A DNA stretch of 64,000 nt from a virus (taxonomy: Duplodnaviria > Caudoviricetes), in the IMG/VR virus record IMGVR_UViG_3300014208_000024, positions 1 through 64,000 of that record; one strand, 5' to 3'. The notes beneath the pieces were generated by a model, which made no database searches, was not told the DNA's origin, and worked only from the letters and a program-made list of their open reading frames with translations. Shown here one piece after another: positions 4,043 through 51,796 of the stretch (positions within the stretch are counted from its first letter, which is position 1; each line of letters starts with the position of its first letter). Made by a program: the position numbers and the translations under genes.

Positions 4043-4077
4043 AAAAAACCCCAGGATTTTTGACCTTGGGGTTTTTT
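4043..4077 (-). terminator. Attenuator terminator of the Gln/Phe/Arg/Val tRNA array
   Basis: CCCCAAGG-TCAAAAAT-CCTGGGG-TTTTTT; 5' arm CCCAAGGTC is complementary to leader GACCTTGGG (4114-4122). Confidence 0.8.
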
Positions 4078-4097
4078 AGTAAATGACGTATATTGTA

Positions 4098-4193
4098 TTA
4101 ACGACATGACACACCCAAGGTCTTTTGTACTTGTTGCACAAAAAACACAACCTGAAAGCGGCTTTGGCATGTTATGTTAATTAAATTTTTCAT
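4098..4193 (-). CDS. Leader peptide MKNLINITCQSRFQVVFFVQQVQKTLGVSCR
   Basis: 31-aa uORF with 5 Gln, 5 Val, 3 Phe, 2 Arg; overlaps antiterminator. Confidence 0.8.
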   Translation of the reverse strand: MKNLINITCQSRFQVVFFVQQVQKTLGVSCR

Positions 4194-4240
4194 TCTTTAC
4201 TTTTATTTAAATAGTCAAAAAAAATTGTTTTCATCAATTC

Positions 4241-4267
4241 ATACGCAAAGATAAGAAAAAAGTTACA
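4241..4267 (-). promoter_or_regulatory. TGTAAC-N16-CGTAT promoter overlapping a TATCTTTG -7 element
   Basis: Motif recurs upstream of many minus-strand units. Confidence 0.7.
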
Positions 4268-4344
4268 TTAAATCCAAGTTTTTTTCTTACTTTTTTTAAA
4301 ATAATTTTTAATTTGTTGAATTTTAATTAGTTTTAAAAAATTCT

Positions 4345-5025
4345 TTAATAAACAAATTCTGAAAGTGTTTTAAATTTTTTATCTAAACTTAGCAGTGCTA
4401 TTTCTACTTCTTTTAAACACTCATTAATTCCACCGCCCAACAATATAATATTGGAATAGTTTTTTAAGAAACTCATTAAATCAGGTATATTTATCATATC
4501 TCCAGCGTTTTCTAATAAATCTCTTACATCTTGTTGATTGTGGTTTGTTTCTTTCATATAATTGTTCCACATATCATTGTCAATATCTCTACTATCATTT
4601 ACATTATGTTTAATCATATATTTAATCAAGTCAACGATATTATCTTCATCAATAGAATTGTCAATACAATACCTAAAAAAAGCATATCCTTTATCATAGA
4701 ATGTTGCATTTTGTATAATATCTTCATCAATGTTTAAATTAATTAACCATTCTTGGAAAGAATATTTGTCAATCATACCAAGTGTATCGGCGCCATTATA
4801 TAAAAAAACTATATTATTAAGTTCTGCGTTTTTGTTAATAAAATTAACCCATTTTTTTAAATCAAATGTTATAAATTTTTCATATTCTGGTTGAATATCT
4901 ACATTAACAATCGTTTTACCCTGTACTTTGCTTTCATTTATTAATCTTAATTTTCTTTTATTTAAATTGTTATTTTCGTTTAAATATTCACGTATAGTAG
5001 TTTTTATAAGTTTTCTTAATTTCAT
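4345..5025 (-). CDS. Isochorismatase/cysteine-hydrolase-like protein with IREY N-terminal extension
   Basis: VNVDIQPEY and LLGGGINECL motifs. Confidence 0.5.
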   Translation of the reverse strand: MKLRKLIKTTIREYLNENNNLNKRKLRLINESKVQGKTIVNVDIQPEYEKFITFDLKKWVNFINKNAELNNIVFLYNGADTLGMIDKYSFQEWLINLNIDEDIIQNATFYDKGYAFFRYCIDNSIDEDNIVDLIKYMIKHNVNDSRDIDNDMWNNYMKETNHNQQDVRDLLENAGDMINIPDLMSFLKNYSNIILLGGGINECLKEVEIALLSLDKKFKTLSEFVY

Positions 5026-5080
5026 ATTCTTAAATGTATTTATTATACATATAAATATTATGAAATAAATTATAAAAAAA

Positions 5081-5536
5081 TTACCGACTTACTTCTACTT
5101 CTGCTTCTGGATATTTATAGCAAGCATTTAAATAATTTTCTACAAATTTAACCAATCCTTCGTAGGAGCCCCATCCGTTATCTGGATTAAACTCCTTATA
5201 TTTTTCTGGATTTAACTTAAGTTTATGTAACCCTTGTCTCAAAGGTTCAATCAATTCTTTTGCTTTTGTAACACCAATTTCATCTGGTCTCCACAAATGT
5301 TCATAAATTCCAGCTTGTTCGGCCATTACATTTAAGTTATGAGTAATGTTTGAAGAATACACTTCATCACTTTCATTAGTTTGTTCTGGAATTCTTACGG
5401 GTTCTATACCTGGGTGTTTTTCATTCCATTCTCTCAATGAAATTTCTTTTGTTTCTCCATTTTCACGAACAAATATTCCAGATGATTCACGGATCACCTT
5501 TTCTCCTTTGGAGATTAAACTAACATCTAAGCTCAT
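5081..5536 (-). CDS. Conserved hypothetical phage protein
   Basis: MSLDVSL...NITHNL...NGWGSY. Confidence 0.75.
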   Translation of the reverse strand: MSLDVSLISKGEKVIRESSGIFVRENGETKEISLREWNEKHPGIEPVRIPEQTNESDEVYSSNITHNLNVMAEQAGIYEHLWRPDEIGVTKAKELIEPLRQGLHKLKLNPEKYKEFNPDNGWGSYEGLVKFVENYLNACYKYPEAEVEVSR

Positions 5537-5859
5537 TGTTTTAATTCTTTTACTTTATTATACCATTTATCAACTCCTTTATTCAACTCTTCTTTTATTT
5601 CTTCGAAAGTAAACCCATCGGCCAGGATCATGTCATAAATAACAATAAGAGCATCTGCATATTCTTCTTTTTTATTATCTCTTACGCTTTTAATAGTCAT
5701 TCCTTCGCTACGTGGTTTCAATCCAAGTTCTCTCATGTGAGCTGCTGCAATTTCACCAATTTCCTCTTGTAGTTTTACCATCTTATCTGAAACTGTCATA
5801 GATTTTCTTGGATCATTTTCTCTTGCCAGTTTTATTTTTTCTAAAATTTTGTCATCCAT
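5533..5859 (-). CDS. MazG-like nucleotide pyrophosphohydrolase
   Basis: KLQEEIGEIA...EEYADAL motif. Confidence 0.75.
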   Translation of the reverse strand: MDDKILEKIKLARENDPRKSMTVSDKMVKLQEEIGEIAAAHMRELGLKPRSEGMTIKSVRDNKKEEYADALIVIYDMILADGFTFEEIKEELNKGVDKWYNKVKELKQ

Positions 5860-6046
5860 TATTAATGCATTTTTTGTGAAATTTTATAATTTTATTTTTT
5901 TCTGATTCTGAAAGAAGTTTCCACCAATTAAATCTTTCTTCTTTGTTTTTTAATTGTCTAATTTTTAATAAAGGGCAATTTTTTTCTTCTTTGTTTTTTG
6001 AACATCCGAATATTAATCCAATATATGTTTCTTTGTATAAGAACAC
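5852..6046 (-). CDS. Hypothetical protein
   Basis: Overlapping operon arrangement. Confidence 0.55.
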   Translation of the reverse strand: MFLYKETYIGLIFGCSKNKEEKNCPLLKIRQLKNKEERFNWWKLLSESEKNKIIKFHKKCINNG

Positions 6047-6261
6047 TTAGAAATTTTTTCATAAATAATGTAAAATTATTCTAAAACAATTTCTCCTTTT
6101 AAAATTTTTTCTCTTATTTTGTCTTTTTCTTTAAAAACATCTTGATCAAAATGTACGCTATTTTTATCCGTTAGCTCATCTAATTGCATTAACAAAAATT
6201 CCATATTTTTTTTATAATTAATGTTTATTATCTTACACGATTTTTTCATTTTTTTAAAGTT

Positions 6262-6666
6262 TTAAGTAATTTTTTTTATAATGAAATCTACACAAGCGTT
6301 GTACATAGCTTTATGAGAAACTTCCAAAACAACATTTTTGTAAATTTCTTTTTCTGTTTCTTCTTTTTTTAACTCACAAGTCTCTTTGTGGCTAACCACA
6401 TTTACATACCCATCTGGTTTCGATGTATTATGCCACTCTTGAATGAAAACTTCTGTTTCATCATCTTTCATTGAAATAATAGTTCTCATTTTATATCCTT
6501 CTCTGGGATTATGGTTTATTTTGTGTATAACCCATCTTAAAATCTCTGAACCAATCACTGGATCATGAGGAGCAAATAGTTTATAATCCAATTCTTTTTC
6601 GTCATAACCCATGAATTTAAAAAGAGTTTTGTTGTATTTTTTATAATTTTCTAGATAATTTTCCAT
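6262..6666 (-). CDS. Hypothetical protein
   Basis: Long ORF in operon. Confidence 0.7.
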   Translation of the reverse strand: MENYLENYKKYNKTLFKFMGYDEKELDYKLFAPHDPVIGSEILRWVIHKINHNPREGYKMRTIISMKDDETEVFIQEWHNTSKPDGYVNVVSHKETCELKKEETEKEIYKNVVLEVSHKAMYNACVDFIIKKIT

Positions 6667-6667
6667 A

Positions 6668-9968: not shown

Positions 9969-11396
9969 TTAACGATTTTTTTCTTTTAATTCTCTGGGCG
10001 CATTTCTTTCTTGATTTTTTCTTTTTTCTTCTTTACGCTCTTTAAATGTTGGTCCAGAATTTTTGTCTTTTATGTTTAAAATTGGAATTAAACGATCAAT
10101 AACATTGGCCGTTGGTTCATTTAATCTTTCTATTGTTTCAGAATCTTTATAAGCCCCTTTACATTCATCAAGAGTACCTTTACAAACTGATGTTGAAAAA
10201 ATTCCCTCCATTTCTTTTTTAAAATATTCTAAATCAAGTTTTTCTTTTGCCATAGAACGACTCATTTTTCTTCCAGCGCCATGACCACAACTATAATTAA
10301 ATTCTGGATTTGATTTTCCTTCACATATTAATGATCCATCTTTCATATTAAGTGCTACAATCATTTTTTCTCCAACGTATGAGCGTATGGCACCTTTGCG
10401 AATAATAAAGTCTTTAAAATCGATATAATTGTGTACTGTTTCAATAATTTCGATTGGTTTAATGCTTCCTAAAATAAGACATGATGTGTTTAACATCATT
10501 TTTCTATTAAATTCTGCATATTTTTGAGCAACTACCATATCAAGCAAATATTCAAAAGCATTTTCACCTTCCAGGAACTCCATGCCATTAATGTTAAAAT
10601 CAAAATCAAGTCCAAGTTCTTTTTTTGCAGATTCCGTTAGCTGTGGAATTGTAGTTTTATCTTTGGTGTTTTTATTTATAAATTCAATTTTTTCCTTTAA
10701 CTCCACATTTCTTTTATCACTTAAAAGTTTTTTTGCTTTATTTTGATGATAGTCACAAATACATTTACCAAAATTTCTAGATCCAGAGTGGATAGAAATC
10801 CATATGTCTTCCGTTTTTTCAGAAACTCCTAACTCGTAATAATGATTTCCTGATCCGAGTGAATTTATACTTAATTCAATGTGTTTTTGCTTCGCTTTAA
10901 TTTTACTGCACAATTCGCCAAAGCTCCTATAATCAAATTTTTTAAATTCATAATTTGTTTTAAATTTGTTGTTATAAGCTCTCGTAAAAATCAACATTTC
11001 ATTATTAAGTTCATCCCAAGGAAAATGTTTTCCAAATAAAAACTTTTCATTATTATTAATTTTAAATCCATTTTCATTAGCATTAATACCCATTGGAATA
11101 CTTTCTCTTATCTCTTTGTCAAATTTTTCAAAAGTCATATTTAACTTTTTTCCAATGTTTGCACATAAAATTCCGCATGAAATATCGACTCCGATTGTAT
11201 TGGGAATCAAATATTTACCAAGTGGCATTGTGAACCCAACAACAGAACCTTTTCCAGCATGAGCATCTACTTGCAATACAACATTGTTATCAAATGCAAT
11301 ATGATTTATCATATTGTTAACTTGATTAATACATTGTTCTTCAATTTCATCATTAGTAATTAATGCTCTTGTAAACTTTCCTTTTATTGTGTACAT
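9969..11396 (-). CDS. rtcB: RtcB RNA 3'-phosphate/5'-OH ligase
   Basis: DAHAG, GVDISCG, LGSGNHY, HSGSR, HNY, RKGA, HGAGR motifs. Confidence 0.95.
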   Translation of the reverse strand: MYTIKGKFTRALITNDEIEEQCINQVNNMINHIAFDNNVVLQVDAHAGKGSVVGFTMPLGKYLIPNTIGVDISCGILCANIGKKLNMTFEKFDKEIRESIPMGINANENGFKINNNEKFLFGKHFPWDELNNEMLIFTRAYNNKFKTNYEFKKFDYRSFGELCSKIKAKQKHIELSINSLGSGNHYYELGVSEKTEDIWISIHSGSRNFGKCICDYHQNKAKKLLSDKRNVELKEKIEFINKNTKDKTTIPQLTESAKKELGLDFDFNINGMEFLEGENAFEYLLDMVVAQKYAEFNRKMMLNTSCLILGSIKPIEIIETVHNYIDFKDFIIRKGAIRSYVGEKMIVALNMKDGSLICEGKSNPEFNYSCGHGAGRKMSRSMAKEKLDLEYFKKEMEGIFSTSVCKGTLDECKGAYKDSETIERLNEPTANVIDRLIPILNIKDKNSGPTFKERKEEKRKNQERNAPRELKEKNR

Positions 11397-21465: not shown

Positions 21466-21667
21466 GTTTAAAATGTTTTTGTTTTAAAAAAACCCCCGCA
21501 TCTCGTATACGGGGGAACTTTTGTTTTTCTAATCGAACTTCCATCTTGGACGCATGGGCTGGCCTATTCTAAACTTATCTGAAGGGCATCCGAGAATCCC
21601 AGGAATTGCTTACAACCACGAAGCTGAATCTACCAATCTATACGCAAACTTTTTAAAAAAGTTACAT

Positions 21668-22315: not shown

Positions 22316-22497
22316 AATACAAAATTTTAAAATTAATACTGATTTTGTCGTCTGGAAAACCCAGACAAATAGATGCTGTATAATGACAATGTATGCCAAA
22401 ATTTAGCAAATAGCATGTTTTTATCTGGAGAATCCAGATAACTTATGCTTTATGAAAAGAATCTAACAAATAGACGCATTGTAATCTTTATAATTTG

Positions 22498-22579
22498 TGA
22501 CCAAAAGGAGAGTCGAACTCCTACACCTTTCGATACCAGCTTCTTAGACTGGGTTGTCTACCAATTCCAACATTTGGCC
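22498..22579 (-). tRNA. tRNA-Leu(AAG)
   Basis: GGCCAAA/TTTGGTC acceptor, CCAGT-CTAAGAA-GCTGG, long V arm. Confidence 0.85.
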
Positions 22580-22584
22580 ATTTG

Positions 22585-22659
22585 TATCCCCTCTGGGATT
22601 CGAACCCAGAAAACTTCTGCTCTTGAGGCAGACGACTTTACCAATTTGCCCAAGAGGAC
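22585..22659 (-). tRNA. tRNA-Leu(CAA), short variable loop
   Basis: GTCCTCT/AGGGGAT acceptor, TCTGC-CTCAAGA-GCAGA. Confidence 0.85.
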
Positions 22660-23526
22660 TTATTTATTTAATTCTTTTTCATAATATTTTATCCATTTTC
22701 TTATTGCATTATCTGATACACCATATTTTATTCCAACTGCACGATAATTTGTTTCTTTTATTTCTTTCAAAAGTTGTTCATGTGAAGGACGATCTACTTT
22801 TCGTTGATTTATTTTTGCACATTCATCACATGTTTTACTCCTGTTTTGTATTTCCTTATTACATTTTGGACAATAATGTTTTTTATGTATTCTTTTGTTT
22901 TTTATTTTTTTAATTATATCTTTTTCTTTAAATTTCAATCCATGTTCAGACATTAATTTGTATATTGCTCCATGATTATTGCTTTTTGTACTCATTCCAC
23001 ATTTTTTCAATACTTCTCTTACACTATTAGATTCTTTTATAATTTTTATTGCCAACTGTTTATCAAGGTGGTTTTTTGTTTTTTTCTTCCCCTTTTCCTC
23101 TATTGCATGACAATTTGGACATAAAACAATTAAGTTTTCCAATTTGTTGTTTTCACTGTTCCCGTCTTTATGATGTAATTCTATAGGAATTTCATTTTTT
23201 TCCCATTCTGTTCTATTACATTGATAACATTTGTGTTCAAAATACCCTTCTTCAATTAATCTCTTTTTTAAAGAATCAGATTTTATAAACAATTCGTTAT
23301 TTAAATATTTAGAAATAGGTGTTTTGTAACCCAAAACCTTTCCTTTACTCCAAGAACTTCCATAAAAATGATTAATATTAATGTTAAATTCTTTGATTTT
23401 ATTCTTTAATGACCTATAATTTCCGCCTGCTGGAATTATTCCAAAATTATTCATTACTTCCCTTAATGAAAAAGAACTATTGACTACATTTTCCAAATCT
23501 TCTTTTTTTATTTTTTTTATTTTCAT
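22660..23526 (-). CDS. HNH homing endonuclease inside tRNA array
   Basis: CYQC...ELHHKDGNSENNKLENLIVLCPNCH. Confidence 0.9.
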   Translation of the reverse strand: MKIKKIKKEDLENVVNSSFSLREVMNNFGIIPAGGNYRSLKNKIKEFNININHFYGSSWSKGKVLGYKTPISKYLNNELFIKSDSLKKRLIEEGYFEHKCYQCNRTEWEKNEIPIELHHKDGNSENNKLENLIVLCPNCHAIEEKGKKKTKNHLDKQLAIKIIKESNSVREVLKKCGMSTKSNNHGAIYKLMSEHGLKFKEKDIIKKIKNKRIHKKHYCPKCNKEIQNRSKTCDECAKINQRKVDRPSHEQLLKEIKETNYRAVGIKYGVSDNAIRKWIKYYEKELNK

Positions 23527-23626
23527 ATATTTTTTTATTTATAAATAGCACAAAAAATTAAAACGCAAAAGAAACACTTGAAATGCCTTTACCTTTTTTA
23601 ATTTAATTATTCAAAGAACCTTTTTG

Positions 23627-23713
23627 TAGCTCAGATCGGAGTCGAACCGACACGGATTTTACAACCCGATGGATTTTAAGTCCATTGCGTATAACCAGTT
23701 TCGCCACTGAGCC
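23627..23713 (-). tRNA. tRNA-Leu(TAA)
   Basis: GGCTCAG/CTGAGCT, ATGGA-CTTAAAA-TCCAT, long V arm. Confidence 0.92.
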
Positions 23714-23719
23714 ATTTTG

Positions 23720-23802
23720 TGCGGGTGAAGGGATTCGAACCCCCACGTCTTTCGACGCTACATCCTAAGTGTAGTGCGTATAACCAGTTTCGCCACACCC
23801 GC
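23720..23802 (-). tRNA. tRNA-Leu(TAG)
   Basis: GCGGGTG/CACCCGC, CTACA-CTTAGGA-TGTAG. Confidence 0.93.
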
Positions 23803-23807
23803 ATTTG

Positions 23808-23891
23808 AGCACATGGAGGGATTTGAACCCCCGACTCTTTCGAGATAACAGTTTTGCAGACTGATGGCTTAGACCACTCACCCACATGTGC
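23808..23891 (-). tRNA. tRNA-Cys(GCA) with long variable arm
   Basis: GCACATG/CATGTGC, U73, loop CTGCAAA, CTC-GAAA-GAG V arm. Confidence 0.82.
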
Positions 23892-23897
23892 ATTTTG

Positions 23898-23984
23898 TAT
23901 CCCCACTCAGATTCGAACTGAGAACGTTTCCATGTATTCCACAGGGTTTAAGCCTGCAAGCTTTTCCAATTTGCTCATGGGGAC
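23898..23984 (-). tRNA. tRNA-Leu(TAA)
   Basis: GTCCCCA/TGGGGAT, GCAGG-CTTAAAC-CCTGT. Confidence 0.85.
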
Positions 23985-23990
23985 ATTTAA

Positions 23991-24131
23991 AATTTAGGGG
24001 AAAAGCAAAAAGAGTGTTGAAGATTTCTCTTCGGAGGATTTGAACCTCATTCCCTTTCGGGAGATTGATTTTTGGTCAATTGCGTAAACCAGTTTCTCCA
24101 CGATGTAACTCTTTTAATGGCCACCTAAATT
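23991..24131 (-). ncRNA. Cassette A: permuted Leu-like tRNA body with acceptor stem capped by a short purine loop
   Basis: AATTTAGG/CCTAAATT and AAAAGAGT/ACTCTTTT flank stems, TGGCCA, TACATC^G; cargo 24019-24101. Confidence 0.75.
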
Positions 24132-24160
24132 AAATTTTCAATATTTTAAAGAACATATAA

Positions 24161-24200
24161 AAACAAAAACGGGAGCAAGTTTTTTTAACTGCTCCCGTTT
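24161..24200 (-). terminator. Attenuator terminator of the Leu/Cys tRNA array
   Basis: AAACGGGAGCA...TGCTCCCGTTTTT; leader TGCTCCC (24257-24263) can pair with GGGAGCA. Confidence 0.82.
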
Positions 24201-24224
24201 CTGGTTTATTGGTTTATCTCGCAT

Positions 24225-24305
24225 TTATGCAAAATCATTCCAGGTCAACTTGCTTTGGGAGCAATTTGATAGTAAGAGGCATAAACACAAAGATAAAGTT
24301 TTCAT
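24225..24305 (-). CDS. Leader peptide MKTLSLCLCLLLSNCSQSKLTWNDFA
   Basis: 7 Leu and 3 Cys in 26 aa, upstream of Leu and Cys tRNAs. Confidence 0.82.
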   Translation of the reverse strand: MKTLSLCLCLLLSNCSQSKLTWNDFA

Positions 24306-24344
24306 AATTTCAGTTTATATTAAATAGTCTAATTTTTCTAATTT

Positions 24345-24371
24345 CTACGCAAAGATATAAAAAAAGTTACA
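24345..24371 (-). promoter_or_regulatory. TGTAAC-N16-CGTAG promoter with overlapping TATCTTTG
   Basis: Recurring motif. Confidence 0.7.
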
Positions 24372-24393
24372 TTAAAAACAAGTTTTTTCCTAA

Positions 24394-45408: not shown

Positions 45409-46311
45409 TTATCTTATAATATTTAATTCCTTTTCAGTCCATACCTCAAATGGTATGTTATTTTTTTTACAATATTTTTTAACAGCTTTAATTTTTTCTT
45501 TATTATTCCATCTATTTAACAATCTTTTTGGCTTAACTTCAACTATTTTTTTTAGTTCTTCTTTGTAAAAAATTTCAAAATCTATAATTGTACTTCTTTT
45601 TCCATTCCTATATTTTATATTGTATGGCTCGTAATTATAATAAAGAACATTATCATCTTTTTCTAATATTTCCATAGCTATTAACTCATAAGAACTTCTG
45701 TATTTTATTTCTTTTTTATTTTTATTACTATAATAAATTCCACCTTTATATTTTTTATGTGATGGAGAAATCCCAAACATTCCATTGCTTTTTCCGCTAT
45801 TTTTTCCTTTTATAGAATTTGATATTTTCTTTTTCACATCCTCGCTTTGTGATGCACATTTTTTAGAACAATAAATGTTTTCATGCTTATTAACTTCTTT
45901 TCCACAAAATTTACATCTTGGTTTTTCTTTTATATTTTTTTTCTTACCTGCTTCAATACGCTCTATTAAAAATCCAAACGCACCATTTTCTCTAATGCGT
46001 TTTTTTATAGAATCTCCTATGTTTTTTTTCGTTTTTTCTGATTGAATTCTTTTGTTTGCACAACTTCTAGAACAAAACATAGAATATTTTTTTTTCTCAA
46101 AATCTGTTTTTTTTAAAATAATCTCATATTTTTTTCCACATCTCAAACATCCAAACTCATACTCTAATCTTTCTATTTTTCTACTATTAGATGCTTTTTG
46201 TATCATGTTTTTTTTGTTTGGGTTTTTTTTACAATTAATTATATGACCACCAAGTTGTTGTTGCTTGTCATATTTTATTAATTGTCCACAATATTTACAT
46301 TTTTTTTCCAT
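45409..46311 (-). CDS. Zinc-finger/NUMOD plus TnsA-like homing endonuclease
   Basis: KYRSSYE...IIDFEI...VEVKP. Confidence 0.8.
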   Translation of the reverse strand: MEKKCKYCGQLIKYDKQQQLGGHIINCKKNPNKKNMIQKASNSRKIERLEYEFGCLRCGKKYEIILKKTDFEKKKYSMFCSRSCANKRIQSEKTKKNIGDSIKKRIRENGAFGFLIERIEAGKKKNIKEKPRCKFCGKEVNKHENIYCSKKCASQSEDVKKKISNSIKGKNSGKSNGMFGISPSHKKYKGGIYYSNKNKKEIKYRSSYELIAMEILEKDDNVLYYNYEPYNIKYRNGKRSTIIDFEIFYKEELKKIVEVKPKRLLNRWNNKEKIKAVKKYCKKNNIPFEVWTEKELNIIR

Positions 46312-46365
46312 TTTTTTGTATTTATTTTACTATAAATATCAGCAAAAAATAAAAATTGAACTCTG

Positions 46366-46437
46366 AGCGGTATACTGGATTTAAACCAGCGACCTTCACA
46401 TTGGCAATGTGACATTCTATCACTGAACTAATACCGC
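46366..46437 (-). tRNA. tRNA-Gly(GCC)
   Basis: GCGGTAT/ATACCGC, U73, TCACA-TTGCCAA-TGTGA. Confidence 0.83.
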
Positions 46438-46440
46438 ATA

Positions 46441-46607
46441 AAATTAGGGAAATTTCGAACTAAGCATTTTTCTTTTTCTGCCCCATTTAACCACTCTGGA
46501 ACCCCCCCGAATTACTCCTTATTTGTCGAGGGGGATGGATTCGAACCACCGAAGGCTTACGCCAGCAGATTCCTTATCGAAGTAACTTAATTTGTTACCA
46601 CTAATTT
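46441..46607 (-). tRNA. Cassette E: circularly permuted type II (Tyr-like body) tRNA with AGG anticodon
   Basis: 3' half 46526-46578, 5' half 46479-46509; join GCA|GA restores GCAGA/TCTGC; loop TAAGGAA; 16-nt linker. Confidence 0.78.
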
Positions 46608-47387
46608 ATATTTTTTATTCCAATTTTCTATTTTGTTTTTTAAATCATCTAATGAAATAGAACATTTTTTATTTTTACTTGAATTATTTGAATGAACCAT
46701 TAATTTGCAATTTGCTGGATGAGAAATAATATTTGAATCAATTTTTTGTTTAAAACCTTCCGAAATTGAAAACATGTGATCTCTACTAATTCCATTTAAG
46801 TTATTCCCTTTATTCTTTGCACAATACCATCCAAATTTTTTAATCAACTCAAAGTCAAATTCTTCTACGAAATCTTTTAGATTAAAATTAAATCGACACT
46901 CTGATTTATATATATTAAATTCAGTCATCTTTTTTTTATCAAAAATTTTTCTACAATTTATCCCACAAAATTTATTTTTTCTTTTTTTAAATGGCAAAAT
47001 AGCATTACACTCTAAACAAAAATTTGGATTTTCATAATATTTGTCAATACCATTTTTTTTAATATTAGCATTTTTAATGTTTTCTTTTGCTTTGTCACTA
47101 AAAACAACTTTTCTGCCAGTATTTTTCTTATTGTTAAATGATGTAGAACAACTTAAAGAACAAAAAGTATTAAACCTTTTTTCGTATGAAATTAAATTAC
47201 CACAATGTTTACATTTTTTAATATCAATTTTAGGTTTATGAAATTCATTATAACAAGTTAAGGAACAAAAATGTTTTCTTCCCATTTTTTCACTTCTTTT
47301 AAATTCTGTTTTTGTTTTTTCAAACTCATTTTTACAATTTTCGCAAATTATTAAAATTGTTTTTCTATTATTCTTAAAAATTTTCAT
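46587..47387 (-). CDS. Zinc-finger plus HNH-like homing endonuclease
   Basis: FCSLxC repeats; GISRDHMFSI...HPANC; start re-chosen at MKIFKNN. Confidence 0.78.
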   Translation of the reverse strand: MKIFKNNRKTILIICENCKNEFEKTKTEFKRSEKMGRKHFCSLTCYNEFHKPKIDIKKCKHCGNLISYEKRFNTFCSLSCSTSFNNKKNTGRKVVFSDKAKENIKNANIKKNGIDKYYENPNFCLECNAILPFKKRKNKFCGINCRKIFDKKKMTEFNIYKSECRFNFNLKDFVEEFDFELIKKFGWYCAKNKGNNLNGISRDHMFSISEGFKQKIDSNIISHPANCKLMVHSNNSSKNKKCSISLDDLKNKIENWNKKYKLVVTN

Positions 47388-47459
47388 ACTTTTATTTTTC
47401 TTATAAATATTAAAAAAAAATAAAAGTGGAGTTTTTTTGAGTCGAACTTGTATGCTTAG

Positions 47460-47533
47460 TGGAAGTGAAGGGTTTCGAACCCTCATACCTTATGCTTGCA
47501 AAGCATCTGCTCAGCCAATTGAGCTACACCCCC
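47460..47533 (-). tRNA. tRNA-Ala(TGC)
   Basis: GGGGGTG/CACTTCC with G3:U70; loop TTTGCAA. Confidence 0.9.
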
Positions 47534-47615
47534 AGATTTCCTATTAACTCTTCCATTCACCCTAAAGTGGGTGGGTTTACAGAACTTCGGAAAGACTTTC
47601 GTCTTGTTCAATTAG

Positions 47616-47689
<74 letters not shown>

Positions 47690-47691
47690 AA

Positions 47692-47770
47692 ATGATAGTC
47701 TTTCCCATCTGTCACCCTTAGATGTGATTATTAAAAATAATCAGTGTATTGCGGGTTGTCTACACCATCC
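47692..47770 (-). ncRNA. Candidate pseudoknotted small RNA
   Basis: GATGGT/ACTATC, TGATTATT/AATAATCA, CATCT-AAGGGTGAC-AGATG whose loop GGGT can pair with upstream ACCC. Confidence 0.4.
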
Positions 47771-47778
47771 TTTTTCAA

Positions 47779-47929
47779 AAAACAGGGAAAATTTATAAGA
47801 GTTTGTTTTACGTGCTCTAACCGACTGAGCTATCCCGCCATTTTCCTTTTATTTGTGGCGGGAGCAGGATTCGAACCTACGGCGACGGCATTATGATTGC
47901 GAAGTAACTCTCATTGTTGCCACTGTTTT
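47779..47929 (-). tRNA. Cassette G: circularly permuted tRNA-Met(CAT)
   Basis: 3' half 47856-47900, 5' half 47811-47839; join CG|GCA; GGCGGGA/TCCCGCC; 16-nt linker. Confidence 0.87.
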
Positions 47930-47944
47930 ATCTTAAATATGTTA

Positions 47945-48098
47945 AAAATTAGGGAATTCTTCGCAGAATCTGTTTTTAAGCGCTCTAACCAACTGAGCTA
48001 TCCCCGCATTATTTTTTATTTAGAGCGGGGAACAGGATTCGAACCTATGGCCTCTGTCTTGGAAGGACGATGAAATTCTACATTTTGCCACTAATTTT
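47945..48098 (-). tRNA. Cassette F: circularly permuted tRNA-Gly(TCC)
   Basis: 3' half 48024-48068, 5' half 47979-48007; join CT|GTC restores CTGTC/GACAG; U73; 16-nt linker. Confidence 0.88.
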
Positions 48099-48102
48099 AT
48101 TG

Positions 48103-48177
48103 TCGGGGTAACTGGATTTGAACCAGCGAACACTTGCATCCCATGCAAGCCCATATAGCCATCTGTGGAACACCCCG
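48103..48177 (-). tRNA. tRNA-Pro(GGG)
   Basis: CGGGGTG/TACCCCG, CTTGC-ATGGGAT-GCAAG. Confidence 0.82.
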
Positions 48178-48245
48178 TAAGGTGCGGAATTTAAAGTCGT
48201 GGAGTCACAATGCTCAACGGCACAAACCTTCCGCTGTTTGTTTTG

Positions 48246-48320
48246 TCTGGGTAAAGGGATTCGAACCCCCGAACACGTGCTTCCAAAGCACGCCCGTATA
48301 GCCATCTGCGGAACACCCAG
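48246..48320 (-). tRNA. tRNA-Pro(TGG)
   Basis: CTGGGTG/TACCCAG, CGTGC-TTTGGAA-GCACG. Confidence 0.87.
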
Positions 48321-48426
48321 AAATAAAAGAGAGAACATCTTATGAGATGCTGTCCTAACCATCACCGTTCACGTTTCAGGTCAGTAACTCAAGTCTTGTG
48401 AACCTCCCAAGACCCTTTTCTTTTTG

Positions 48427-48501
48427 TCGGGTAAGCAGGATTCGAACCTGCGAACATCTGTCTCCGAAACAGACCCATATAGCCATCTGTGGAACTACCC
48501 G
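48427..48501 (-). tRNA. tRNA-Pro(CGG)
   Basis: CGGGTAG/TTACCCG, TCTGT-TTCGGAG-ACAGA. Confidence 0.87.
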
Positions 48502-48521
48502 AATTTTAATTTCATTTTCAC

Positions 48522-48610
48522 TGGTAGCGGGTGAGGGACTCGAACCCCCGCTTCCCTTTTGGAGAAGTCCAGCTTATGAGACTGGCAAGATACCACTTCT
48601 CTAACCCGCA
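48522..48610 (-). tRNA. tRNA-Met(CAT) with 1:72 mismatch, long V arm and encoded CCA
   Basis: TGCGGGT/ACCCGCT, CCAGT-CTCATAA-GCTGG. Confidence 0.8.
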
Positions 48611-48617
48611 ATATTTG

Positions 48618-48699
48618 TCGAAAGGGAGGGAGTTGAACCCCCATAGCCGAAGGCGACGGTTTTACAGACCGCTGATTTAGCCGATTTACCATCCTTTCG
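48618..48699 (-). tRNA. tRNA-Tyr(GTA)
   Basis: CGAAAGG/CCTTTCG, GCGGT-CTGTAAA-ACCGT, long V arm. Confidence 0.88.
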
Positions 48700-48703
48700 A
48701 AAA

Positions 48704-48799
48704 CTTTGGCTCATGGGTCAGTTACTATCCCATTTTTATTTAACGCTATTCCAAGGCGACTAACTTGTGTCCAACAACGCATCCACTATGCAGCCAAAG
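48704..48799 (-). ncRNA. Candidate structured RNA
   Basis: CTTTGGCT/AGCCAAAG closure, GCAT-AGTGG-ATGC, ATGGG/CCCAT hairpin whose loop TAACT can pair with AGTTA. Confidence 0.42.
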
Positions 48800-48817
48800 G
48801 GAGATTTTTAAAATTTG

Positions 48818-48902
48818 TGAGAGTAGAAGGATTCGAACCTCCAACGCCCCGAAGGGCAACAGGGTTACAGCCTGTCAGACATCCTGGTTGTCTAATACTC
48901 CC
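48818..48902 (-). tRNA. tRNA-Tyr(GTA)
   Basis: GGGAGTA/TACTCTC, ACAGG-CTGTAAC-CCTGT. Confidence 0.88.
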
Positions 48903-48906
48903 ATTT

Positions 48907-49058
48907 AAATCAGGGTAAAAGCGAATAAGCTTTTTTGTTTTTGAATTTTTCCCCATAGTTTAAAATTTAATTGGTGGGGAAAGCAGGATTCGAACCTACA
49001 ATGTTTAGTTTTACAGACTATTTTCTTCCGAAGTAACTCATTCTGTTGCCACTGATTT
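48907..49058 (-). tRNA. Cassette H: circularly permuted tRNA-Tyr(GTA)-like RNA with minimal D-arm
   Basis: 3' part 48972-49029 with encoded CCA, 5' part 48943-48954; GGGGAAA/TTTCCCC; flanks AAATCAG/CTGATTT and GAATGAGT/GCTTATTC. Confidence 0.78.
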
Positions 49059-49059
49059 G

Positions 49060-49131
49060 TGGAGGATAACGATACCGATTCGTTGGTCTGTTGCTTGCAA
49101 AACAACCGCTTTACCATTAAGCTAAGCCCCC
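49060..49131 (-). tRNA. tRNA-Ala(TGC) with non-canonical T-loop
   Basis: GGGGGCT/ATCCTCC (G3:U70), loop TTTGCAA, T-arm AACGA-ATCGGTA-TCGTT. Confidence 0.72.
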
Positions 49132-49811
49132 AATTTATAATAAGAGAAAATGTGATTTTTATGAGATTTATTAACACCTCTACAAACCTTAGAAACACAA
49201 TTCCAATCAAACCCATCTTCTATAACTTGCCTTCCAAAATTATAAATTTTTATCAAATTATTTTCTAAATTATAACAAAAAACTTTTTTACAATTCTTAC
49301 TATTTATTCCACTATTTTTTTCTTTTGTTTTTTCACTCCATTTTAATCCAACTCTTTTAGCAGACATTTTTTCTTTACTTTCTTTAGAATGATTTTTTCC
49401 ATAAAATCCATTTTTATCTCCAAGACAACTTGTTTTTCTTGTTTTTGACATCTTTATTTTTGATTCTTCCGAGTGTTTGAAAATTCCTTTTTTACCTTTG
49501 TTCCAAGGAACAACACTGAATGAACCATCTCCACCATTTGTCATATTTGTAAGCTCAAACCCCCAAGTTTTAATTTGAGAAATCCAATATTTTTCCCAAA
49601 AATCACAACTTAACTCATCAGTTTCTTCTATGATAAAAAGTTCTGGTAACAATCCATTTTTTTTTAATTTTTTAACCCAAGCAGTTTTTTTTGTATTTTT
49701 ACTTTCATTTAAATGGTCTCTAAATCTTCTTTCTACCCTATATGTTTTTCCAACATATTTTATACTTTTATTTCTTGGGTCAGAAAGTAAATAAATATAA
49801 ACTTTTTTCAT
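49122..49811 (-). CDS. GIY-YIG homing endonuclease with NUMOD3/NUMOD1 repeats
   Basis: VYIYLL...KYVGKT...RFRDH; HSEESKIKMS repeats. Confidence 0.9.
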   Translation of the reverse strand: MKKVYIYLLSDPRNKSIKYVGKTYRVERRFRDHLNESKNTKKTAWVKKLKKNGLLPELFIIEETDELSCDFWEKYWISQIKTWGFELTNMTNGGDGSFSVVPWNKGKKGIFKHSEESKIKMSKTRKTSCLGDKNGFYGKNHSKESKEKMSAKRVGLKWSEKTKEKNSGINSKNCKKVFCYNLENNLIKIYNFGRQVIEDGFDWNCVSKVCRGVNKSHKNHIFSYYKLGA

Positions 49812-49846
49812 ACTTTTTTATTATAAATATAATAAAAAAAAATGAA

Positions 49847-50206
49847 TTATGGATTAATTAATGGATTTATTTTTTGTTTTGTTAATTTATATACCCTATT
49901 ATTAAAATCTTCTAATAAAGATTTGGGTATTTTTATTTTTTTATCTTCAAATTGTTTAAGTATTTCATACTTAGAAAAACACCCTTCAACAATACCCTCT
50001 GACCACATATTAATATGCAACCCCCAAGATTTTTTTCCCATAATTACAGTTTTCAAAATGTTTGGGTGACAACTTTTAAGATTATTAATTTTTATTTCAC
50101 CATTTTCAAATTTTCTGAATCCAAATTTTCCATCATCAGAATCCAGATCAAATTCCACTTTAACATCTGAACCGCAGAAAGTAAGTATTCCACATCTATA
50201 AGACAT
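49847..50206 (-). CDS. Hypothetical protein
   Basis: ORF. Confidence 0.65.
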   Translation of the reverse strand: MSYRCGILTFCGSDVKVEFDLDSDDGKFGFRKFENGEIKINNLKSCHPNILKTVIMGKKSWGLHINMWSEGIVEGCFSKYEILKQFEDKKIKIPKSLLEDFNNRVYKLTKQKINPLINP

Positions 50207-50437
50207 TAAAAAAAACGTGAAGATTTCGTTAAACTTTTCAGAATACTTTTGTAATCTTTTATGATTTCTTGTACCAGAGATTTGTTTTTTTTCTTCAATT
50301 TTTCTTAACCTCTCTTTAATTGATTCGCTTTTCGCATGGCTGTTCCCTCCAAAGTTTTAATTATTAATATGATAAAGTTGATTTTGCTCAATATCATTGT
50401 TAGCTTTATCGTTCAAAAACTATGATATTATATTGTA

Positions 50438-50508
50438 AATCAGGGAATAGTTACCGAGGGAGTTTTTTGATTTGCAGTCGAAGTATCCCTACTGATTGCC
50501 ACTGACTT
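50438..50508 (-). ncRNA. Cassette I: minimal cassette whose cargo is only a Cys anticodon stem-loop
   Basis: AGTCAG/CTGATT, AGGGA/TCCCT, TGGCAA, TACTTC^G, cargo GA-CTGCAAA-TC, TATTCC. Confidence 0.72.
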
Positions 50509-50510
50509 TG

Positions 50511-50583
50511 AGCGGGTAAAGAGGTTCAAACTCTCGACTTTCAGATTGGAAATCTGACGCTCTATCAGCTGAGCTATACCCGC
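50511..50583 (-). tRNA. tRNA-Gly(TCC)
   Basis: GCGGGTA/TACCCGC, U73, TCAGA-TTTCCAA-TCTGA. Confidence 0.83.
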
Positions 50584-50688
50584 ATTATTTTAGTTTATAA
50601 AAAATAATATAATTTAAATTTTTTTTCACAATTTGTTAAAGAAAATAGATTTTCTAAAATTTTGTGATATTTATATGAAAAATATTAT

Positions 50689-51369
50689 ATGACACCACTT
50701 TATACACAAGAAGAATTTGACAACGCTAAAGGTTGCGACAAATTGCCATGTAAATGTAAATATTGTAAAGAAACATTCTTTAGATATAAGTATATAATTA
50801 AAGCAGCATTAAACCCAAAAAACAAGCAAACTAATGATTATTGTTCAAGAAATTGTCAATATCAATCTCAGTTTAAGCATGAAACTATAAGATGTGACAA
50901 TTGCAATATTGAAATTAAAAAATTAATTTCTACTACAAAAAGACATAAAAATCATTTTTGTTCGCACTCATGTTCTACTAAATATTTTAACGCTCACAAA
51001 ACAACTGGAATTAGACGATCTAAATTAGAAATATGGCTTGAATCACAACTCACTTTTCTTTATCCAAGTCTTGAAATTCATTATAATAAAAAGGATGCCA
51101 TTGGATCAGAATTAGATATATATGTACCCTCTTTAAAAATTGCATTCGAATTAAATGGAATATTCCATTATGAGCCAATTTATGGTAATAATAAATTAGA
51201 TCAAATAAAAAATAATGATTCAAGAAAATATAAATCTTGTATTGATTTAAACATATCTTTGTGTATAATAGATTCATCTCAATTAAAATATTTTAAAGAG
51301 AAAAATTGTAAAAAATATTTAGATATTATTATTAATATTATAAACAACACAATGAATACTGGACAATAA
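50689..51369 (+). CDS. Zinc-finger plus PD-(D/E)XK/Vsr-like homing endonuclease
   Basis: ELDIYVPSLKIAFELNGIFHY. Confidence 0.8.
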   Translation: MTPLYTQEEFDNAKGCDKLPCKCKYCKETFFRYKYIIKAALNPKNKQTNDYCSRNCQYQSQFKHETIRCDNCNIEIKKLISTTKRHKNHFCSHSCSTKYFNAHKTTGIRRSKLEIWLESQLTFLYPSLEIHYNKKDAIGSELDIYVPSLKIAFELNGIFHYEPIYGNNKLDQIKNNDSRKYKSCIDLNISLCIIDSSQLKYFKEKNCKKYLDIIINIINNTMNTGQ

Positions 51370-51426
51370 TAACCAGCATTCATTATGTGTTTTAAATTCA
51401 CCAACATGTCAAAGACCATTATACTG

Positions 51427-51498
51427 CGGAATGTGTGGGATTCGAACCCCTCCTTCGCCGTGACGGGGCGATACTACTACCATTATACGACACACTCC
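51427..51498 (-). tRNA. tRNA-Asp(GTC), weak T-stem
   Basis: GGAGTGT/ACATTCC, G73, TCGCC-CCGTCAC-GGCGA. Confidence 0.75.
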
Positions 51499-51530
51499 AA
51501 TTTTCATTTATTTATAAAGAACGTATTAAA

Positions 51531-51569
51531 ACAAAAAACCCGAATCTTTTTTTGGGATTCGGGTTGTTT
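51531..51569 (-). terminator. Attenuator terminator of the Asp/Gly/Ala/Tyr/Met/Pro tRNA array
   Basis: CCCGAATC-CCAAAAAAA-GATTCGGG-TTTTTT; leader GGGACGGGTATGTTT can pair with AAACAACCCGAATCCC. Confidence 0.8.
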
Positions 51570-51599
51570 GTTCACCTTTTAAGTTTTATAAAAACTTCA

Positions 51600-51713
51600 T
51601 TAAGGTTTTGAGTTAAACATACCCGTCCCACATCCATAATCAGCATCCGCTGCACATGGATAACCGCCCATTGGGGAAGTTTCTGGTTGACGATATGTAA
51701 AATTTTGTTTCAC
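51600..51713 (-). CDS. Leader peptide (GTG start) MKQNFTYRQPETSPMGGYPCAADADYGCGTGMFNSKP
   Basis: 4 Pro, 5 Gly, 3 Ala, 3 Tyr, 2 Asp, 2 internal Met, 2 Cys. Confidence 0.8.
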   Translation of the reverse strand: MKQNFTYRQPETSPMGGYPCAADADYGCGTGMFNSKP

Positions 51714-51769
51714 CTTTATTATGTTTTTATATTATTAAATATCTCAAAAAAAATTGTTTTCACAGATTC

Positions 51770-51796
51770 ATACGCAAAGTTACAAAAAAAGTTACA
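51770..51796 (-). promoter_or_regulatory. TGTAAC-N16-CGTAT promoter with overlapping TAACTTTG
   Basis: Recurring motif. Confidence 0.7.

Follow-up and report, generated by a model that had tools for sequence, protein, structure and literature searches.

Leader-peptide attenuators of enterobacteria can be multivalent: that of thr responds to Thr/Ile and that of ilvGMEDA to Ile/Leu/Val, and others control his, leu, pheA and trp. In E. coli the pheM leader attenuator senses charged tRNA-Phe and governs pheST, which encodes phenylalanyl-tRNA synthetase. T-boxes bind uncharged tRNA directly, by means of a specifier codon and the T-box sequence, without translation. Leader-peptide attenuation has also been inferred for flavobacterial amino-acid operons (PMC9723704). 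Here we analysed a stretch of 64,000 nt (the window) from the 372 kb genome of an uncultured phage, in which five tRNA arrays each lie behind a leader module that would gate them. Judged from sequence, these modules are very probably ribosome-mediated (leader-peptide) transcription attenuators that control tRNA genes and would feed decoding capacity back on tRNA transcription.

In common with the enterobacterial attenuators, the phage modules have a short leader, in which regulatory codons for one or several amino acids form a run, and behind it an intrinsic terminator. They also share an antiterminator, exclusive of the terminator, with its 5′ strand at or within the 3′ part of the leader ORF, such that a stall would favour read-through. 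They differ in being phage-encoded, in their Bacteroidota-type signals, in lacking a Shine-Dalgarno sequence, in that no clear 1:2 pause hairpin was found, and in combining up to six amino acids per leader. Moreover, the regulated genes are tRNAs and not biosynthetic enzymes, and the output would therefore feed straight into the quantity that is sensed. The Rfam leader families (Thr_leader, His_leader, Leu_leader, Trp_leader etc.) gave no match in the window at gathering score, and at relaxed thresholds the single leader match was Thr_leader on module 4 (20.5 bits against a cut-off of 55, E=0.73). The pheM/pheST system shares leader-peptide attenuation of a component of the translation apparatus, but it is cellular, senses a single amino acid and controls a synthetase protein, whereas in the phage the tRNAs themselves would be controlled, by seven parallel circuits. 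T-box riboswitches likewise combine terminator and antiterminator in a leader that senses tRNA status, and they regulate genes connected with translation. The phage leaders, in contrast, contain an ORF with its start and stop codons and numerous regulatory codons, and the T-box covariance model found no match in the window in the Rfam gathering scan.

A brief comparison with the cultured Caulobacter phage phiCbK (JX100813) revealed similar units of small ORF and rho-independent terminator inside a tRNA cluster. There, Ser/Leu/Pro/Lys are abundant in gp083 (23/44, P=3e-4), an ORF followed by an annotated terminator and then by Pro, Lys, Leu and Ser tRNAs. Another ORF has a core of Gln/Phe/Val/Ile and is succeeded by a terminator and by Phe, Val, Ile and Gln tRNAs. 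Segments of these ORFs are complementary to the 5′ halves of the terminators. phiCbK differs in its unrelated phage lineage, its GC-rich alphaproteobacterial host and its promoters, and the paper describing its genome annotates terminators and tRNAs and never mentions attenuation. A literature search found no publication describing leader-peptide attenuation of tRNA genes, in agreement with the preliminary description, which knew of no such report for phage tRNA genes.

Anatomy of the leader modules

The window contains 35 tRNAs detected by ARAGORN and 5 more detected by Rfam, all on the minus strand. Read on this strand, every array (n=5) is preceded, in order, by a Bacteroidota-type promoter, a short uORF and a hairpin with a T-run (Table 1); the five arrays, each behind promoter, uORF and terminator, had been described before, and the uORFs fall at exactly the coordinates then claimed. 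The uORFs are 25–37 codons long, begin with ATG in four cases and GTG in one, and all five end in TAA. The promoter blocks are near-identical (TTG, ~21 nt, then TAnnTTTG), and TAnnTTTG matches the −7 box of the Bacteroidota sigma-A consensus (PMC9723704). An Ile-like tRNA previously noted in array 3 corresponds to positions 31091–31168; it is non-canonical, carries the anticodon GAT and was detected by Rfam only.

Two further modules of identical anatomy lie beyond the window in the same genome, upstream of Ser/Arg/Trp and Glu arrays, and fit the prediction of extra modules that follows from attenuation. Between the T-run and the first tRNA lie 20 nt in module 1, 34 nt in module 5 and 0 nt in module 6, which leaves no room for a second promoter. 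Negative controls come from a GOLLD RNA, a Met tRNA, an sRNA and amber-suppressor tRNAs, which use the same promoter without uORF or terminator; that the suppressor tRNAs are leaderless fits the idea of codon sensing.

Table 1. Positions of promoters, leaders, pairing elements and tRNA arrays in the window
Feature	Position	Strand	Remarks
Module 1 promoter (TTG ... TAtcTTTG, conserved block)	4240..4285	-	-7 box consensus, PMC9723704
Module 1 leader uORF, 31 codons; Q, R, F, V regulatory run = codons 10-23	4098..4193	-	
Module 1 predicted antiterminator strand (region 2, codons 24-28)	4110..4123	-	-18.0 kcal/mol with own terminator 5′ arm; 0/3000 random windows equal it
Module 1 intrinsic terminator	4043..4077	-	hairpin -16.1 kcal/mol + T6
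Module 1 boxA-like block, immediately 5′ of tRNA-Gln	4021..4035	-	
Array 1: Gln(ttg), Phe(gaa) x2, Arg(acg), LAGLIDADG ORF, Val(tac), Arg(acg)	1803..4022	-	
Module 2 promoter	24344..24390	-	
Module 2 leader uORF, 26 codons; Leu/Cys run = codons 4-12	24225..24305	-	
Module 2 predicted antiterminator strand (codons 13-17)	24256..24267	-	-17.4 kcal/mol, P=0.003; RNAalifold consensus helix
Module 2 intrinsic terminator	24165..24202	-	-20.9 kcal/mol
Module 2 boxA-like block	24139..24154	-	
Array 2: YrlA-like cassette, Leu(taa), Cys(gca), Leu(tag), Leu(taa), ORF, Leu(caa), Leu(aag)	22497..24130	-	
Module 3 promoter, more divergent copy	31770..31805	-	
Module 3 leader uORF, 25 codons (27 with start at 31740); Ile/Lys run = codons 6-17	31657..31734	-	
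Module 3 predicted antiterminator strand (codons 19-22)	31670..31678	-	-12.0 kcal/mol, P=0.02; G001 orthologue carries a double compensatory change
Module 3 intrinsic terminator	31600..31633	-	-14.6 kcal/mol, T9
Array 3: Lys(ttt) x3, Lys(ctt), non-canonical Ile(gat)-like tRNA	31091..31484	-	
Module 4 promoter	35353..35398	-	
Module 4 leader uORF, 29 codons; Thr/Asn/His run = codons 3-18	35216..35305	-	
Module 4 predicted antiterminator strand (codons 20-23)	35238..35247	-	-12.6 kcal/mol, P=0.009
Module 4 intrinsic terminator	35164..35193	-	hairpin folding; consensus scan also finds terminator
Module 4 boxA-like block	35138..35153	-	
Array 4: YrlA-like cassettes, Asn(gtt) x2, His(gtg) x2, Thr(ggt, cgt, tgt), tta suppressor, HTH/HNH-like ORF	33139..35126	-	
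Module 5 promoter	51769..51815	-	
Module 5 leader uORF, 37 codons, GTG start; Pro/Met/Gly/Tyr/Ala/Asp run = codons 7-32	51600..51713	-	
Module 5 predicted antiterminator strand (codons 28-32; extendable to ~17 pairs)	51620..51630	-	-13.3 kcal/mol, P=0.009
Module 5 intrinsic terminator	51533..51565	-	-16.2 kcal/mol
Module 5 boxA-like block, degenerate	51505..51522	-	
Array 5: Asp, Gly(tcc), Ala x2, Tyr x2, Met x2, Pro x4, Gly(gcc), ORFs between	45035..51498	-	

Codon match and alternative pairing

Codons decodable by the leader's own array number 14/30, 10/25, 9/24, 12/28 and 18/36 in leaders 1–5, against a background of 9–23% (empirical P of 5e-5 to 1.4e-2). The leader-by-array codon matrix (6x6) is diagonal, the true assignment being the best of 720 permutations, and per-leader P of 1e-5 to 1.4e-2 give a Fisher's combined P of ~5e-14 with genome-derived nulls. 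Thus the match of leader composition to array, as first proposed, holds in all five cases, regulatory residues making up 38–50% of each leader and not all of it. These codons are clustered, and the cluster ends just 5′ of the antiterminator strand. The leader of the Arg(acg) array carries CGC/CGT though CGN accounts for 11% of the Arg codons of the phage (P=0.013), and that of the Arg(tct, cct) array carries AGA/AGG. Tuning of leaders to individual isoacceptors is only suggestive: the Watson-Crick codon is present in the leader for 23/32 anticodons compared with 19.6 expected (P=0.07), and rare codons are enriched over the whole leader without the regulatory positions being singled out. The class 2 peptide begins with Lys, a hydrophobic run and then Cys, in the manner of the signal peptide of a lipoprotein, which offers another source for its Leu/Cys richness.

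Terminator hairpins range from −13 to −21 kcal/mol and are followed by a T-run of 6–9. The 3′ segment of the uORF (region 2) can pair with the 5′ arm of the terminator in duplexes of −12 to −18 kcal/mol, as had been claimed of the late uORF segment; compared with random windows of the genome, P<=0.02 for all five. Each window leader (n=5) finds its best partner in its own terminator arm, the combined P over modules is ~4e-9, and in three classes the consensus fold from RNAalifold contains this helix. The terminator and antiterminator pairings are mutually exclusive and class-specific. The antiterminator of the Ser/Arg/Trp module is weak and interrupted (P=0.07 in this genome; −8.5 kcal/mol in the G001 orthologue). 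In MFE folds, region 2 has partners within the regulatory run, and no conserved 1:2 pause hairpin was established.

When a ribosome footprint was moved along the leader, the 5′ arm changed from sequestered to free once the A site passed the last regulatory codons (6/6 leaders tested). Three modules (2, 4 and 5) have their stop codon >15 nt beyond the end of region 2, which would thus be exposed again by a ribosome waiting at the stop; here the switch must depend on kinetic coupling. Without a ribosome, this crude thermodynamic model has the 5′ arm sequestered, equivalent to read-through, unlike the ‘superattenuation’ default of trp.

Among related metagenomic phages, 32 distinct modules keep the ORFs, regulatory cores and pairing, some with compensatory changes. 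The uORFs remain open through in-frame indels across these variants, and the cores are the best-conserved parts of the peptides, with a synonymous share of 39% in regulatory columns versus 21% elsewhere. The C-terminal halves vary in sequence, with the RNA pairing retained. When terminator arms were swapped over the 32 modules, the own arm outperformed that of another class in 90% (mean +5.3 kcal/mol); within classes it was better in 61%, a modest covariation. Compensatory changes include the series ccTTggg/cccAAgg to ccTGggg/cccCAgg to ccGTggg/cccACgg in class 1, gAATggg/cccATTc to gGCTggg/cccAGCg in class 3, and an A-T pair replaced by G-C in class 4. The sequence hallmarks tested (ORF, codon cluster, terminator and alternative pairing) are present, and support the trp/his/thr-type attenuation suggested in the preliminary description.

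Alternative explanations and the proposed switch

A simpler switch might report only whether ribosomes translate at all, as set by infection stage, host shut-off or global translation stress, and not how well the particular tRNAs are supplied, the codon match being a by-product or fine-tuning. The weak isoacceptor tuning is compatible with this, as is the formation of the antiterminator without a ribosome in the footprint model, by which any loss of translation would open all arrays. However, such a switch leaves unexplained why seven paralogous leaders carry different, array-matched amino-acid sets, why the cores are the most conserved peptide segments and why the Arg leaders are split between CGY and AGR, and we regard it as improbable. 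Alternatively, the uORFs may be functional micro-protein genes with their own terminators, and the tRNAs expressed by constitutive leak-through alone. The lipoprotein-like start of the class 2 peptide and the conservation of the peptides among relatives would suit such genes; yet each of seven unrelated peptide compositions reflects the tRNAs encoded behind it, pairing is kept while the sequence of the C-terminal halves varies, and arrays lack a second promoter, so that we attach hardly any weight to this reading. Chance or duplication, with the modules as copies of one promoter-terminator cassette and the codon match as a selection effect of the preliminary description, has next to no probability. 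Promoter, 5′ UTR, T-run and boxA-like parts are indeed near-identical paralogous copies, but both the differences and the match lie in the variable parts, namely the uORF body and the terminator stem. Moreover, the nulls were genome-derived, the two modules outside the window fit, and the 32 variants on other contigs keep the pattern.

The boxA of rRNA operons is the NusB/NusE loading site for antitermination. A block resembling it in sequence, GTTCTTTAAAATATTG, follows four of the five window terminators and the leaderless GOLLD promoter, and is absent from modules 3 and 6; it may have a related function in the phage. In three Bacteroidota genomes the identical 18-mer precedes the 16S 5′ end by 72–108 nt, and in three or four more it lies before tRNA-Tyr/Gly operons, as counted among ~38 exact-match loci, with none of the ~35 others upstream of 16S; most exact genomic matches do not adjoin stable-RNA genes. 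These positions favour a further possibility, in which a phage or host complex at the boxA-like site, or a timed phage protein, overcomes the terminators and the uORF plays no regulatory part. Lying downstream of the terminator, though, the block cannot act on that terminator, and such a reading takes no account of the codon match or of the class-specific complementarity between region 2 and the 5′ arm, making this explanation very improbable.

With leader-peptide attenuation, transcription would begin at the conserved Bacteroidota-type promoter and the leader uORF would be translated while emerging, the outcome being set by the supply of charged tRNAs for the regulatory codon run. Given ample supply, the ribosome would cross region 2 and leave the 5′ arm free, the hairpin and T-run would act, and polymerase would halt before the array. 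Given scarce supply, the ribosome would stall in the regulatory run, region 2 would pair with the 5′ arm, and polymerase would read through, then meet the boxA-like site, probably become termination-resistant, and transcribe the entire array. Newly made tRNAs would relieve the stall, closing a negative feedback loop on decoding capacity; the genome would hold seven such loops, five of them within the window. Anatomy, codon match, specific complementarity and conservation are seen in the sequences; we infer uORF translation, the direction of the switch, the function of the boxA-like block and the physiological trigger.

This type of control is known for amino-acid genes, and its application to tRNA genes appears new. 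More tentatively, and in our view less likely than not, the seven leaders could constitute a codon-resolved supply controller, in which the elongator tRNAs found here are split into independently gated arrays, each opened only by slow decoding of its own codons and replacing exactly the limiting tRNAs. If so, the source of shortage could be a mismatch with host codon usage, phage-induced host shut-off, or host anticodon nucleases. Cleavage of tRNAs by host defence, also named as a trigger in the preliminary description, is conjecture. Were anticodon nucleases the trigger, the modules would represent an inducible counter-defence with isoacceptor-level specificity, as in the CGY-sensing versus AGR-sensing Arg circuits.

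Organisation of the tRNA arrays and their leaders

The window comes from a virus record of 372,283 bp, 100% complete by CheckV and with a GC content of ~29%. ARAGORN identifies 35 tRNAs in the window and a further 5 are seen by Rfam only, with all of them on the minus strand. The encoded proteins include RtcB, a LAGLIDADG endonuclease, an HTH/HNH-like protein and a TnsA-like endonuclease. ORFs for the last three lie between tRNA genes, and the endonuclease ORFs within the arrays are probably homing or selfish elements that are co-transcribed with the tRNAs. Near and distant BLAST searches against GenBank phages returned tRNA and HNH matches only, and no relative. The sequencing runs listed as containing the locus are all DNA metagenomes, mostly from groundwater.

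At five of five sites in the window, all on the minus strand, the parts of a module follow one common order. A near-identical promoter block is succeeded by a conserved A-rich 5′ UTR of ~45 nt, a short ORF (uORF) and a GC-rich hairpin with a T-run, after which there is usually the block GTTCTTTAAAATATTG and then the first RNA gene of the array; a module is ~250 nt long. The promoters are of Bacteroidota type (TTG, ~21 nt, TAnnTTTG) and there is no Shine-Dalgarno sequence, a form described for Bacteroidota (PMC9723704). The uORFs of modules 1-5 have 31, 26, 25, 29 and 37 codons and were found at exactly the coordinates that the preliminary description had assigned to its five leaders. Terminator energies were taken from RNAfold in place of a consensus terminator scan, and the hairpins range from -13 to -21 kcal/mol and are followed by 6-9 T. 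For modules 2-4, the consensus scan detected the terminator of module 4 alone, those of modules 2 and 3 being missed because they are bulged. Module 1 has 20 nt from T-run to first tRNA and module 5 has 34 nt, and in a sixth module outside the window the two adjoin directly (0 nt); therefore a second promoter has no space before the first tRNA. Transcription of the arrays is predicted to be possible only by read-through of the terminator.

The block directly after the terminator resembles boxA. In three Bacteroidota genomes (L147, L164, L192) an exact 18-mer of it is located upstream of 16S, 72-108 nt from its 5′ end, and in three or four others (L125, L139, L142, L180), one of which (L180) is titled Paceibacteria, it precedes tRNA-Tyr/Gly operons. 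Its presence in stable-RNA leaders supports a putative boxA-like role and a probable Bacteroidota host. A polymerase past the gate would then be termination-resistant over long, ORF-interrupted arrays. The same 18-mer occurs 30 times in a Cytophagales MAG (JAXLUW010000004.1), as a tandem array with a period of ~76 nt. Between terminator 3 and the first tRNA-Lys, where the boxA-like block would be, sits a second, Lys/Arg-rich mini-ORF of 12 codons (window 31500-31565, minus strand), followed by an 8-bp hairpin without a T-run. The related phage G001 keeps this arrangement after terminator 3 in different sequence, and it may be a second control or processing site.

Features in the window and in the whole 372-kb phage genome (G000), including the antiterminator strand (region 2) of leaders 1-5
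Feature	Location	Strand	Details
Module 1 (Gln/Phe/Arg/Val), region 2	uORF codons 24-28		duplex -18.0 kcal/mol
Module 2 (Leu/Cys), region 2	uORF codons 13-17		duplex -17.4 kcal/mol
Module 3 (Lys/Ile-like), region 2	uORF codons 19-22		duplex -12.0 kcal/mol
Module 4 (His/Asn/Thr), region 2	uORF codons 20-23		duplex -12.6 kcal/mol
Module 5 (Asp/Gly/Ala/Tyr/Met/Pro), region 2	uORF codons 28-32		duplex -13.3 kcal/mol
Sixth module (Ser/Arg/Trp)	G000 72804-73016	-	promoter scan
Seventh module (Glu)	G000 338714-338839	+	leader core E-E-S-E-E
LAGLIDADG ORF between tRNA genes	window 2290-3183	-
HTH/HNH-like ORF between tRNA genes	window 34017-34586	-
TnsA-like endonuclease ORF between tRNA genes	window 45409-46311	-
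tRNA, tta anticodon (ochre-suppressor type)	window 33634-33706	-
tRNA, cta anticodon (amber-suppressor type)	G000 74251-74324	-	leaderless promoter feeds gene
tRNA, cta anticodon (amber-suppressor type)	G000 75335-75409	-
Conserved cassettes with tRNA-like modules	window 34669-34784, 34932-35126, ~33600-33725, ~24010-24130, 47856-48007	-
Conserved cassette, further copy	G000 338500-338580	+
GOLLD RNA	window 41517-42327	-	Rfam 226 bits; module-type promoter and boxA-like block, no leader
Small SRP RNA	window 42370-42560	-	42.3 bits; directly upstream of GOLLD, own promoter
Structured RNA, ~120 nt	window 21515-21667	-	module-type promoter, strong terminator at end
RtcB	window 9969-11396
TROVE/Ro60 protein	G000 83831-84688

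Codon match, antiterminator pairing and relatives

The arrays were defined as the tRNAs from one leader to the next, with decoding by standard wobble rules. The resulting 6x6 leader-by-array matrix of decodable leader codons is diagonal, with fractions of 0.38-0.50 for a leader's own array and 0-0.20 for the others, and the true pairing is the best among all 720 permutations. This confirms the match in composition of leader and array that had been read from the sequence. With random windows from ORFs of the phage itself as background, the six leaders have P values, in order, of 8e-4, 5e-5, 1.4e-2, 1.9e-3, 2.9e-3 and 1e-5 (Fisher's combination, 5e-14). In the leader of the Arg(acg) array, Arg is encoded by CGC and CGT, although CGN accounts for only 11% of Arg codons in the phage (P=0.013); the leader of the Arg(tct, cct) array has AGA three times and AGG. 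With the peptide held fixed and synonymous codons resampled, the Watson-Crick codon is present in the leader for 23 of 32 anticodons (19.6 expected; P=0.07). Enrichment of rare codons extends across whole leaders and is not confined to the regulatory positions. Isoacceptor tuning in general is no more than suggestive, and because of this P value and the unspecific rare-codon enrichment we claim it only for the Arg split and the Ser/Arg/Trp leader. For the class 2 (Leu/Cys) peptide, similarity to a lipoprotein signal peptide could also account for its Leu/Cys richness.

The strongest duplex that each uORF can form with the 5′ arm of its terminator involves the 3′ part of the uORF, directly past the run of regulatory codons. 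The duplexes of modules 1-5 are each significant against random genome windows (P <=0.02) and in a cross-matrix the best partner of each leader is its own 5′ arm, so that the complementarity noted earlier between late uORF and terminator holds in 5/5 cases. Since region 2 pairs with nucleotides of the terminator stem, antiterminator and terminator are mutually exclusive. For the Ser/Arg/Trp module the antiterminator is clearer in other relatives than in this genome and G001, where it is weak.

We modelled the ribosome as a 30-nt footprint masked at each codon, folding the nascent RNA up to before the 3′ arm. In 6/6 leaders the 5′ arm is sequestered with the A site on most regulatory codons (P 0.5-0.96) and is free once the ribosome is past the end of the run (P 0.03-0.45). 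A stall within the run would retain the antiterminator and give read-through, and smooth translation across region 2 would allow the terminator to form; as modelled, the footprint results fit this classical attenuation logic. Without any ribosome the model predicts read-through, which would set the phage leaders apart from trp attenuation. A ribosome held at the stop codon of module 2, 4 or 5 would leave region 2 exposed again, so that these modules would need kinetic coupling.

Two related IMG/VR phages (G001 and G002) and ~25 metagenomic contigs were reached through exact matches to the promoter. They yielded 32 non-identical modules, which fall into seven classes and all have matching tRNAs after them. 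G001 has all six minus-strand modules in unchanged order. On contig L110 one leader containing all six residues precedes a contiguous Asn-His-Thr-Lys-Ile-Met array. A seeming mismatch in G002, an F-rich leader with no tRNA-Phe, disappeared when a lower ARAGORN threshold revealed two divergent tRNA-Phe genes. Peptide conservation within a class is highest in the regulatory cores, the leader ORFs remain open despite in-frame indels, and 39% of the differences in regulatory columns are synonymous, versus 21% elsewhere.

Compensatory changes (region 2 / 5′ arm) are seen at the helix centre of class 1 (TT/AA to TG/CA to GT/AC), in class 3 (AAT/ATT to GCT/AGC) and in class 4 (an A-T pair to G-C). 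RNAalifold on nascent-length segments gives the region 2 / 5′-arm helix as consensus for classes 1, 2 and 3. In alignments, paired cells amount to 82% versus 31-54% in slid controls, and double-change counts are not distinctive; because indels mis-register short helices, many true compensatory changes are scored as broken. We therefore substituted per-sequence duplexes and swap tests for column-wise covariation. In 866 swaps between classes a leader's own arm was better in 90%, on average by +5.3 kcal/mol, and swaps inside a class show a modest effect (61%, +1.0 kcal/mol). Taken together, anatomy, codon match, exclusive pairing and relatives support the trp/his/thr-type reading of the preliminary description, and from sequence we judge it probable that the tRNA arrays are under ribosome-mediated attenuation.

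Further modules and structured RNAs

A whole-genome promoter scan revealed the sixth module. Its leader core is W-S-S-R-R-R-S-S-S-R, and directly after its terminator come Ser(tga x2, gct, gga), Arg(tct x2, cct) and Trp tRNAs. The seventh has a terminator of -18.9 kcal/mol and a region 2 duplex of -13.9 kcal/mol (P=0.012), and 3′ of it are two non-canonical tRNA-Glu(ttc) genes missed by ARAGORN. It lies within an operon in which a leaderless promoter, a mini Y-RNA-like element and tRNA-Met come first. Both putative modules are what the attenuator idea predicts outside the window.

The module-type promoter also stands, without uORF or terminator, before GOLLD RNA, the terminated sRNA at ~21.5 kb, an amber-suppressor tRNA and a Met tRNA. 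For the suppressor, stalling at sense codons could not report its supply, because it reads no sense codon. The suppressor-type tRNAs suggest that stop codons are recoded during part of the infection cycle. Since each of the genome's seven leader uORFs ends in TAA, an active ochre suppressor would bring ribosomes into the terminators; such an extension of leader translation is speculative.

Conserved cassettes, which start with GTGGC(A/C)A..GTTACTTCG and end with ..TT(T)CCC, come first in the arrays behind terminators 2 and 4. Their flanks covary and they enclose apparently circularly permuted tRNA-like modules, in one case the tRNA with the tta anticodon. We considered permuted tRNAs or a new splicing system. 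Rfam YrlA (Y RNA-like, RF02553) matches two copies, one over its full length with E=3e-8 and the other with E=0.016, and the genome encodes TROVE/Ro60 and RtcB; on these grounds we rejected that reading and regard the cassettes as phage Y-RNA-like tRNA mimics. An SRP RNA borne by a phage looks unusual. For the ~120-nt structured RNA no Rfam match was found; it is conserved in G001 and G002, with a common TTCAGATAAG motif and the same terminator.

Relation to known attenuators and meaning

The phage design works like the multivalent thr and ilvGMEDA leaders of enterobacteria and resembles the pheM-pheST attenuator and T-boxes in purpose; compared with known attenuators, the new element is that tRNAs are the regulated genes. 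The leaders belong to no Rfam leader family (best match Thr_leader, 20.5 bits, E=0.73) and an Rfam scan found no T-box in the window. No account of tRNA genes under leader-peptide control was found in full-text literature searches, in agreement with the earlier remark that no such description was known for phage tRNA genes.

A comparable layout is found in the cultured Caulobacter phage phiCbK (JX100813, 46800-52800), where annotated rho-independent terminators lie directly before tRNA sub-clusters. Before one terminator, gp083 is Ser/Leu/Pro/Lys-rich (P=3e-4) and Pro, Lys, Leu and Ser tRNAs follow; a second ORF has a Gln/Phe/Val/Ile core (P=0.016), then a terminator and Phe, Val, Ile and Gln tRNAs. 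Parts of each ORF are complementary to the 5′ half of the terminator. Attenuation goes unmentioned in the phiCbK genome paper. On this evidence the phenomenon seems to have a wider occurrence, in phage lineages that are not related, and a model system could be used to test it.

The proposed attenuation bears on the question why large phages have dozens of tRNA genes and how they are expressed. If the reading is true, decoding speed would feed back directly on tRNA transcription, a feedback that to our knowledge is not known in cells or viruses. Being compact and having seven natural specificities, the modules are attractive as codon- or tRNA-specific biosensors. Classical attenuation would be extended to a new gene class, to Bacteroidota-type signals and to leaders reading up to six amino acids. 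Moreover, the modules would offer a testable model for on-demand tRNA supply in infection, possibly in answer to tRNA-targeting defence systems.
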